DNA of 64,000 nt, taken from Minisyncoccota bacterium. Lineage in GTDB: Bacteria > Patescibacteriota > Minisyncoccia > Phycocordibacterales > PALSA-1337. The translations under genes were made by a program, and so were the position numbers. Below, one piece after another: positions 47,150-47,371 of the stretch (positions are counted from its first letter, which is position 1; each line of letters starts with the position of its first letter). Where the stretch lies: contig JBAZRX010000004.1 in NCBI GenBank assembly GCA_041662725.1, positions 2,668-66,667 of the forward strand. The letters are read 5' to 3'. The notes under the pieces were generated by a model that was given only the letters and a program-made list of their open reading frames with translations, was not told the origin of the DNA and did not search any database.

Positions 47150-47371
47150 TTTTAAGAATTGAACAATTGCACAATATAACAATTATAAAATTACACAATA
47201 TGACAATTCAACAATTAAACAATGGGTAATTCATGATTTAATTGTTAAATTGTGTAATTGTTCAATTGTCCTATTGTTAAATTGTGCAATTGTCATATTG
47301 TGTAATTTTATAATTGTTATATTGTCCTATTGTTTAATTGTCATATTGTTTAATTTTATAATTGTTAAATT
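47150..47371. repeat. 222-bp intergenic array of 8-bp units forming a long imperfect inverted repeat: left arm ~9 units NNNACAAT, right arm ~16 units WATTGTNN
   Basis: Right arm reads AATTGTTA AATTGTGT AATTGTTC AATTGTCC TATTGTTA AATTGTGC AATTGTCA TATTGTGT AATTTTAT AATTGTTA TATTGTCC TATTGTTT AATTGTCA TATTGTTT AATTTTAT AATTGTTA. Left arm is TGAACAAT TGCACAAT ATAACAAT TATAAAAT TACACAAT ATGACAAT TCAACAAT TAAACAAT. Fills the entire gnd-pgl spacer. Confidence 0.8.

Follow-up and report, generated by a model that had tools for sequence, protein, structure and literature searches.

Cyanobacterial STRR heptamers are examples of long simple sequence repeats (LSSRs). Repeats of this class have units of 5 to 11 nt and are sporadically distributed across phylogeny, with slippage as the accepted mode of growth, according to the account of Mrazek et al. 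(2007) given in PMC4679880. Also intergenic are the TAACTGA heptamer direct repeats of Beggiatoaceae, Cyanobacteria and Bacteroidetes, for which S1, Csp and CsrA have been proposed as readers; a survey of these recorded 169 direct sets and one indirect repeat only (MacGregor 2015, PMC4679880). Here we analyse a 64,000-nt stretch (the window) from a Minisyncoccota bacterium (GenBank assembly GCA_041662725.1, contig JBAZRX010000004.1, positions 2,668 to 66,667 of the forward strand), in which the 222-bp spacer between gnd and pgl (47150-47371, both genes on the minus strand) is filled by octamer units arranged as a long inverted repeat. This array is a real, striking and unusual variant of the known short-unit intergenic tandem repeats. 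Our favoured explanation, to which we give about an even chance, takes the spacer for an octamer minisatellite of the LSSR class, self-expanding and hairpin-forming, which would have expanded recently, in this lineage only, and would have no dedicated conserved function at this locus. The data show how the array is built, that it can fold, that relatives lack it and that it has kin in a wider family; how it grew, what it does in the RNA and whether it is neutral are inferred.

As far as LSSRs are described in that account, the array resembles them in its short intergenic units set head to tail, and the genomes rich in such arrays carry several unit types, mostly of period 7 to 8. It is unlike LSSRs with near-identical copies in having a fixed 5-nt core, a free 3-nt tail and two inverted arms. 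With the TAACTGA repeats it shares an intergenic position, and ATTGT arrays elsewhere lie, as those do, a few nucleotides upstream of start codons in a preferred orientation and ahead of genes with no common function. However, the ATTGT period is 8 rather than 7 and the core is another one; moreover, the window array is palindromic and has the opposite arm beside the start codon.

The spacer is made up of 26 octamer units, each consisting of ATTGT and three variable bases, which follow an exact period of 8 and form a long imperfect palindrome. The features of the locus are as follows.

47372 to 48325, minus strand: gnd, short-form 6-phosphogluconate dehydrogenase, 317 aa, the upstream gene (Pfam)
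47372 to 47374, minus strand: gnd stop codon
47370 to 47375, no strand: second copy of TTTTAA, overlapping the gnd stop codon
47241 to 47376, plus strand: right arm, 17 head-to-tail units ATTGTNNW (14 perfect cores, 3 ATTTT), from Tandem Repeats Finder (TRF) and a register count
47270 to 47339, no strand: 3' partner of the best inverted repeat, with four further units in the loop (47241-47269) and four outside (47340-47371)
47224 to 47240, no strand: centre, 17 bp of non-repeat sequence (GGGTAATTCATGATTTA) at which unit orientation switches
47157 to 47226, no strand: 5' partner of the best inverted repeat, pairing with 47270-47339 over 70 nt at 90% complementarity
47152 to 47223, minus strand: left arm, 9 inverted units (on the plus strand 7 perfect ACAAT, one AAAAT and one AGAAT)
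47182 to 47211, minus strand: sigma-70-like match TTGAAT-18 nt-TATAAT (10/12), in the pgl-proximal arm and pointing to pgl
47150 to 47155, no strand: TTTTAA, direct repeat of 47370-47375
47147 to 47149, minus strand: pgl ATG
46391 to 47149, minus strand: pgl, 6-phosphogluconolactonase, 252 aa, the downstream gene (Pfam)
44254 to 44276, minus strand: three-unit copy (ATTGTCAT ATTGTGCA ATTGTTTG on the minus strand), directly after the obg stop codon

Read on the gene strand, the right arm presents ACAAU-type units immediately 3' of the gnd stop codon, which the last unit overlaps, and the left arm presents AUUGU-type units that end 8 nt ahead of the pgl AUG. The pgl start at 47149 fits the N-termini of homologues (M-x-F-I...S-P-x-E-G). 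The original prediction, made from the sequence of the stretch, had described the spacer as a 222-bp inverted-repeat array of octamers, and this is borne out: TRF reports period-8 arrays on both sides of 47230, plus higher-order periods of 24 and 48, with right-arm scores of 48, 135 and 172 for periods 8, 24 and 48. Of the unit numbers then given, the nine or so inverted units stand, but the sixteen direct ones become 17 when counted in register, and the best arms put the palindrome centre near 47248 instead of near 47230. That the regularity exceeds chance is confirmed by the two-unit pattern ATTGTNNWATTGT, which has 18 matches in the window against 0.24 expected, a number reached in 0 of 100 shuffles; all matches are confined to the array or to 44256-44276. 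The latter belongs to an array fragment that had been reported at 44253-44278 and that proved real, since 44254-44276 is identical in 22 of 23 bases to the outer end of the left arm (47162-47184), with weaker similarity over about 40 nt. No second full copy of the array is present in the 64-kb window. When metagenomes were scanned for a pattern specific to the array, the sole match was an unrelated AT-rich sequence and no further array copy appeared, and BLAST searches of plasmids and phages with the array gave no match, to which low-complexity filtering may have contributed. An open reading frame (ORF) of 41 aa at 47250-47375 was rejected as coding, being a mechanical read-through of the repeat.

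Could the array be an assembly artefact, either a collapsed or a chimeric repeat? Short-read assemblies do break at this place: an independent Logan contig with an identical Pgl stops 51 nt into the array. Up to that end, however, it agrees with the window base for base, so that the array is not peculiar to one assembly, while the exact number of units comes from a single contig. In addition, the arms are 90% and not 100% complementary and are built from diverse units, unlike the palindromes that assemblers make, and similar arrays are found in many unrelated assemblies. We regard an artefact as barely credible.

The composition of the arms points to how the array may have been built. The block ATTGTCAT-ATTGTGTA-ATTTTATA-ATTGTTAT, including its degenerate unit, is common to both arms, which implies that one arm is an inverted copy of part of the other, i.e., an inverted segmental duplication. 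We infer that the gnd-pgl junction, at first only a few bases in length, either received or gave rise to a short ATTGT-octamer seed similar to the three units that follow obg. The seed would then have been lengthened by slipped-strand mispairing in 8-bp steps, followed by duplication of 24- and 48-bp blocks. The second arm would come from one event spanning about 70 bp, either an inverted duplication or an intrastrand template switch. Quasipalindrome template switching (the Ripley and Lovett models) extends imperfect inverted repeats and raises their complementarity without selection. It is a mutational process rather than a class of element, and it is known from short quasipalindromes but is not known to act on arms of 70 nt.

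We next considered the folding of the spacer. The predicted RNA fold has an energy of -72.8 kcal/mol on the gene strand and -84.6 kcal/mol on the plus strand, the DNA fold one of -54.5, and each has a z-score of about -10 to -11, in support of the cruciform or hairpin potential that had been proposed for the array. Of all 39 window spacers with a length of 50 bp or more, that of gnd-pgl has the most extreme z-score (-14). The gene-strand fold is predicted to close with CCAUU, from the last gnd codons, paired to AAUGG of the pgl AUG region. An intrinsic terminator or transcriptional insulator between gnd and pgl had also been suggested. A large hairpin does stand immediately 3' of the gnd stop codon, and transcription could start afresh for pgl at the promoter-like match downstream of it. 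Yet a scan of 46500-48000 gave no terminator-like site; the stem is AT-rich, G:C pairs occurring about once every 8 bp, and what comes after it is UUCUUAAAAAUG and not a T-run. Canonical terminators with a GC-rich hairpin and a T-run are present elsewhere in the genome, and a related hairpin occurs in another Patescibacterium inside the rplO-secY junction (below), which makes a terminator or insulator very improbable. Searches against Rfam gave no match to a known RNA family. Rfam 15 at E≤1 gave, for the window region, sub-threshold matches to plant miRNA precursors only, as expected for a long hairpin, and twelve related loci gave one tRNA and nothing else at the gathering score.

If the array is the minisatellite that we favour, its self-complementarity may be what allows it to persist, since it would fold back in the gnd-pgl transcript. 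In the co-transcript, the arms would pair over about 70 bp into an AU-rich stem, so that the insert of roughly 214 nt is looped out and the gnd stop codon again lies next to the pgl AUG, at the stem base. A ribosome that completes gnd would then make the pgl start accessible, and tolerance of the insert within an operon would thereby be explained. The TTGAAT-18-TATAAT match in the proximal arm may add pgl transcripts free of the hairpin. It is the best such match of the region, with its TATAAT arising from the degenerate unit ATTTTATA-AT, but it is no more than a match to the consensus, and the region does not have more of these than chance would give.

We also compared gnd-pgl junctions of relatives. 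The comparison covers six junctions from five relatives, and the Gnd homologues with recoverable contigs are 84, 82, 77 and 76% identical to that of the window (the last value applying to two proteins). The locus of a sixth homologue (P0006, 77% identical; locus L462) has a cupin-domain gene after gnd and not pgl. The spacers between gnd and pgl are as follows.

L120: 33 bp
L122 and L123: 0 and 35 bp
L124: 47 bp
L461: 45 bp
L463: 110 bp

No pair of ATTGT units at 8-bp spacing is present anywhere in the loci of these six junctions, the spacers of which (0 to 110 bp) have no ATTGT unit, indicating that the array is a lineage-specific gain in an ancestrally short junction. According to the original prediction, absence from closely related genomes together with no consequence for expression would point to a neutral, microsatellite-like expansion; the first of the two, absence from the closest relatives available, is what we find. 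The 110-bp spacer of L463 (Gnd 76% identical) contains a different palindrome at 3467-3573, built from the heptamers GAATTAT and TCATAWT, with 31-nt arms that are 81% complementary. The same junction thus gained a structure of tandem units in inverted arms twice, independently and from unrelated units.

Arrays with the ATTGT core are not confined to this genome. A scan of one genome per species for four consecutive units gave at least 119 loci; the figures that follow are among the matches listed, and those on position relative to genes rest on crude ORF calls. Most loci are from Bacteroidota (Saprospiraceae, Chitinophagaceae and Bacteroidales), about ten are from Patescibacteria and a few from Gammaproteobacteria and other groups, and the longest arrays have 26 units. 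The unit logo is ATTGT-T(86%)-N-W, in which only position 6 is independent of the search pattern. Arrays are intergenic in 96 of 133 cases, and those in ATTGT sense cluster 0 to 20 nt past stop codons. The usual Patescibacteria form is a hairpin in which four ATTGT units follow the stop codon and, across a loop, four ACAAT units precede the start codon. Such hairpins fill stop-to-start spacers at L032, L010, L023, L051, L053 and L064, with loops and tails that vary by locus. L032 (1531-2170) has one hairpin before rplO and another between rplO and secY, both with the same 3' flank, ACAATATAATTCT-ATG. The latter position means that ATTGT hairpins are compatible with operon expression and cannot block expression there. 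Full-text searches of the searchable literature, among them searches for the repeat strings themselves, turned up no account of either the ATTGT-octamer arrays or these Patescibacteria hairpins.

How specific is the motif? The listed loci also hold many arrays of other units: 133 of 248 arrays of period 6 to 11 are without ATTGT, mostly heptamers and octamers, and some of them form inverted pairs. Several long arrays of other units likewise confine their variation to two adjacent unit positions. In viral contigs, the permuted cores TATGT and TGTTA were, among the matches listed, found as readily as the true core, so that neither the abundance nor the wide distribution of ATTGT is in itself evidence of motif specificity. 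The genomes with ATTGT arrays are thus rich in assorted short-unit repeats, which is the situation of LSSR-rich genomes and of the TAACTGA arrays (PMC4679880). We also looked at 20 genes directly downstream of ACAAT-sense arrays and found them functionally unrelated; they include genes for acetyl-CoA synthetase, SMC, ParA, RecQ, homoserine dehydrogenase, ribosomal protein L15, SecY and TIR proteins and an IS200-like gene. As there is no common function among them, a reading of the arrays as operators of a regulon was rejected. The array upstream of an IS200-like (Y1 transposase) gene, at L061 4-112 in Bacteroidales, is a near-perfect AACAATAA x 14 directly upstream of the gene, with no inverted partner downstream.

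Several of these observations weigh against the minisatellite explanation or against the RNA-level effect that goes with it. Within the array, unit positions 1, 2, 3 and 5 never vary across the 26 units and G occupies position 4 in 21 of them, while the units are of 12 distinct types; 38 of the 43 non-consensus letters fall in unit positions 6-8 (P about 6e-12 if evenly spread). The array does not show the even decay along the unit that neutral drift predicts. Because decay of a neutral slippage array should strike all positions equally, something would seem to constrain ATTGT, either a reader of the core motif or a growth mechanism that depends on the core. Among the matches listed in other genomes, arrays within 80 nt upstream of start codons are in ACAAT sense in 41 cases and in ATTGT sense in 12 (P 8e-5), and hairpins run from ATTGT to ACAAT in 17 cases and in reverse in 3, which puts the window palindrome with the minority type. 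This bias suggests selection or function at the transcript level. ATTGT-core arrays also recur at several loci in other genomes. The nearest relatives compared, at 76-84% Gnd identity, are not very close and would bracket the age of the array only loosely. As to the effect on the transcript, the window palindrome folds better on the antisense strand, and the mismatches of the best arms are compatible with G.U pairing in 2 of 7 cases and are mostly transversions; the two give no sign that a sense RNA structure is under selection. The orientation bias could also be a matter of tolerance, to judge from base composition: AUUGU holds the start-like codons UUG and AUU and is G/U-rich, and ACAAU is A-rich and G-poor, as are the leaders of Shine-Dalgarno-poor bacteria.

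The same evidence bears on a selected intercistronic RNA element, which would act as an RNase III-type processing site, as a stabiliser of the gnd 3' end or as a device that couples or uncouples translation to set the Gnd:Pgl ratio, comparable to the REP/BIME stem-loops of E. coli operons or to the Correia elements of Neisseria. The very stable fold, with the most extreme z-score of the window spacers, and the stop and start codons at the base of the predicted structure are what such an element would look like; the Patescibacteria hairpins in stop-to-start operon spacers such as rplO-secY and the orientation bias that arrays elsewhere show with respect to start and stop codons speak for it as well. 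A test of the asymmetry between G.U and A.C mismatches, which reports on structure in the sense RNA, was mixed across loci: in four Patescibacteria hairpins G.U pairs give the sense strand the better fold of the two, but in the window it is the antisense strand that is favoured. The rare order of arms in the window, the absence of the array from six related gnd-pgl junctions and the lack of an Rfam match also count against an RNA element. Nor would pairing as such explain why the core is invariant and the tail free. We therefore consider an RNA element unlikely, if well worth keeping in mind, and retain the minisatellite as our explanation of the spacer.

An invariant 5-nt core with a free 3-nt tail at an exact 8-bp pitch is also what would be expected of an array for a multimeric nucleic-acid-binding protein, with one protomer per 8 bases of DNA or RNA. 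On DNA, this could be a filament of ribbon-helix-helix type at a centromere-like or nucleoid-organising site; on RNA, the reader could be S1, a cold-shock-domain protein or a PUF-like protein, and PUF elements resemble the unit when it is read as UGUNNWAU. Ribbon-helix-helix arrays include the metboxes of MetJ (8 bp), the parH site of ParG (ACTC plus 4 bp) and the 7-bp heptads of omega; they have 2 to 20 units and adjoin their own par or regulator genes. The gnd-pgl array is like these in its contiguous units of 7 to 8 bp, both direct and inverted, and in its short conserved core. It is unlike them in being absent from relatives and in that no par or regulator gene was found among the ORFs scanned. 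This Pfam scan covered 16 window ORFs, at 42.2-55.1 kb plus 4.9-7.1 kb, and found no ParA, partition or ribbon-helix-helix gene nor any other candidate among them, short ORFs having been left out.

Two further observations from other genomes favour a protein array, namely the orientation bias and the constancy of the core while loops and tails differ, from which it follows that the family is defined by its motif and not by copying. Against it, the genomes concerned also build this design from many unrelated units, so that many readers would be needed, and functionally diverse genes adjoin the arrays; the ease with which permuted cores are found in large collections and the absence from relatives point the same way. 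A protein array is in our view distinctly unlikely. In a bolder reading, the ATTGT(T)NW arrays would be a cis-element family of Patescibacteria and Bacteroidota, read in 8-nt register by a conserved protein (S1-, cold-shock- or PUF-like on RNA, or a ribbon-helix-helix-like filament on DNA) that sets translational coupling or initiation between stop and start in Shine-Dalgarno-poor lineages, and the gnd-pgl spacer would be an extreme version whose 26 sites titrate or recruit the reader. We regard this reading as quite improbable.

A different origin is suggested by the ends of the array. The 214-bp palindrome lies between direct repeats of TTTTAA, its removal would leave gnd-TAA-AA-ATG-pgl, and the TTTTAA pair could have arisen as a 6-bp target-site duplication when the 214 bp were inserted. 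On this basis, the spacer may derive from the insertion, in a TTAAAA target, of a MITE- or REP-like element that is mobile but non-autonomous and whose terminal inverted repeats are themselves repetitive. The near-identical 23-nt piece after obg fits this proposal, as does the finding that the hairpins of L032 and of L033 share loops and flanks within one genome, as dispersed copies would. However, a shared flanking 6-mer TTTTAA arises by chance in about 10% of shuffled flanks, no second full copy exists in 64 kb and the metagenome scan for the array pattern yielded nothing related. The unequal arms (9 versus 17 units) and the duplication of blocks in situ also argue against it. Finally, no transposase, including the Y1 (RAYT) type, was found among the 16 Pfam-scanned ORFs, most window ORFs lying outside the scan. 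We judge a mobile element improbable enough to be given little weight.

REP and BIME elements (including REPINs, in the operons of E. coli and other enterobacteria) and the Correia elements of Neisseria are imperfect palindromes that lie between cistrons or after stop codons and, once transcribed, fold into stem-loops that can make operon mRNAs more stable or promote their processing. A REP unit is GC-rich and 20-40 bp long, is dispersed in many copies and is accompanied by a RAYT transposase. Like REP/BIME elements, the gnd-pgl array is an imperfect palindrome with a stable stem-loop, situated between cistrons and with units in both orientations. Unlike REPs, it is AT-rich with 8-bp units, and it occupies two loci in 64 kb, the second being a fragment of 23-40 nt. 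A better REP analogue in the window is a family of GC-rich 13-mers, GAGGCCTCGCCTC, which has 53 matches (at most 1 mismatch) between 9178 and 44551 against 0.02 expected. As in REP/BIME elements, its units are contiguous, both direct and inverted, and they occur in spacers as well as inside ORFs. Examples are at the following positions.

15291 to 15316: GAGGCCTCGCCTC units
25295 to 25357: GAGGCCTCGCCTC units
28123 to 28161: GAGGCCTCGCCTC units
32943 to 32968: GAGGCCTCGCCTC units
44511 to 44549: GAGGCCTCGCCTC units

Within obg, three in-frame GAGGCCTCGCCTC units (39 bp) code for protein, reminiscent of the gene-inserted palindromic elements of Rickettsia.

The window contains a second compound array, which fills the spacer between secG and the SBP_bac_5 gene (5135-5292). 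It is built from CTACGAAT/TATGCGAA units in a 36-bp higher-order repeat with an inverted arm, and its RNA fold has an energy of -61.4 kcal/mol (z -8). The layout (stop, units, loop, inverted units, start) is the same as that of the gnd-pgl array, but the unit is unrelated. The presence of such arrays of unrelated units means that, in this window, a grammar of short units in tandem and inverted order that fills spacers is not tied to ATTGT. The gnd-pgl spacer shows what is seen of LSSRs: a head-to-tail array of short units beyond chance at a non-coding site, accompanied by several arrays of other units and absent at orthologous sites. Two smaller arrays are present as well. One, of period 7 (TCATTGA/TCATTGG/TTATTGG/TAATTGA; 2350-2382), lies in a spacer between two minus-strand genes; the other, of period 11 (TGATAAAGAAA x 4.8; 25237-25289), lies in a divergent spacer and adjoins GC-rich palindromes.

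An array that is no more than an expanded simple-sequence repeat would be of little importance on its own. The gnd-pgl array nevertheless indicates that genomes of the Candidate Phyla Radiation (CPR; Paceibacteria) tolerate long AT-rich quasi-palindromes inside operon junctions, that one such junction has been hit independently by different repeat palindromes and that repeats of this kind break short-read assemblies. The part that deserves a census is the family pattern, i.e., the fixed ATTGT core, the orientation bias and the Patescibacteria stop-to-start hairpins, as it bears on why some bacterial lineages gather tandem arrays of 7-8 nt and on whether anything reads them.

By Pfam, the neighbourhood of the array includes obg, gatB and genes for an AI-2E transporter and VanY. 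The products assigned at 42.2-55.1 kb are a MerR-type HTH protein, GatB, Obg, the AI-2E transporter, Pgl, Gnd, VanY, a PRTase, OMP decarboxylase, AbiEii, DUF6922, an S41 peptidase and DAGK, with one ORF unmatched, and those at 4.9-7.1 kb are SecG and a solute-binding protein. The gene for the AbiEii-type nucleotidyltransferase toxin adjoins that of the DUF6922 protein (52354-53271), and the two are likely a type IV toxin-antitoxin pair. Two perfect DnaA-box nonamers (TTATCCACA), at 41860-41868 (minus strand) and 42463-42471 (plus strand), flank a 337-bp AT-rich divergent spacer (41874-42210); their count alone is not significant, being matched in 14 of 100 shuffles. Somewhere between ~33 and 44 kb, both gene orientation and GC skew change sign. 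A giant ORF of 2951 aa (33018-41873) and an ORF of 987 aa (11451-14414) have internal tandem repeats of 129/258 bp and 45/150 bp and probably encode repetitive surface proteins.

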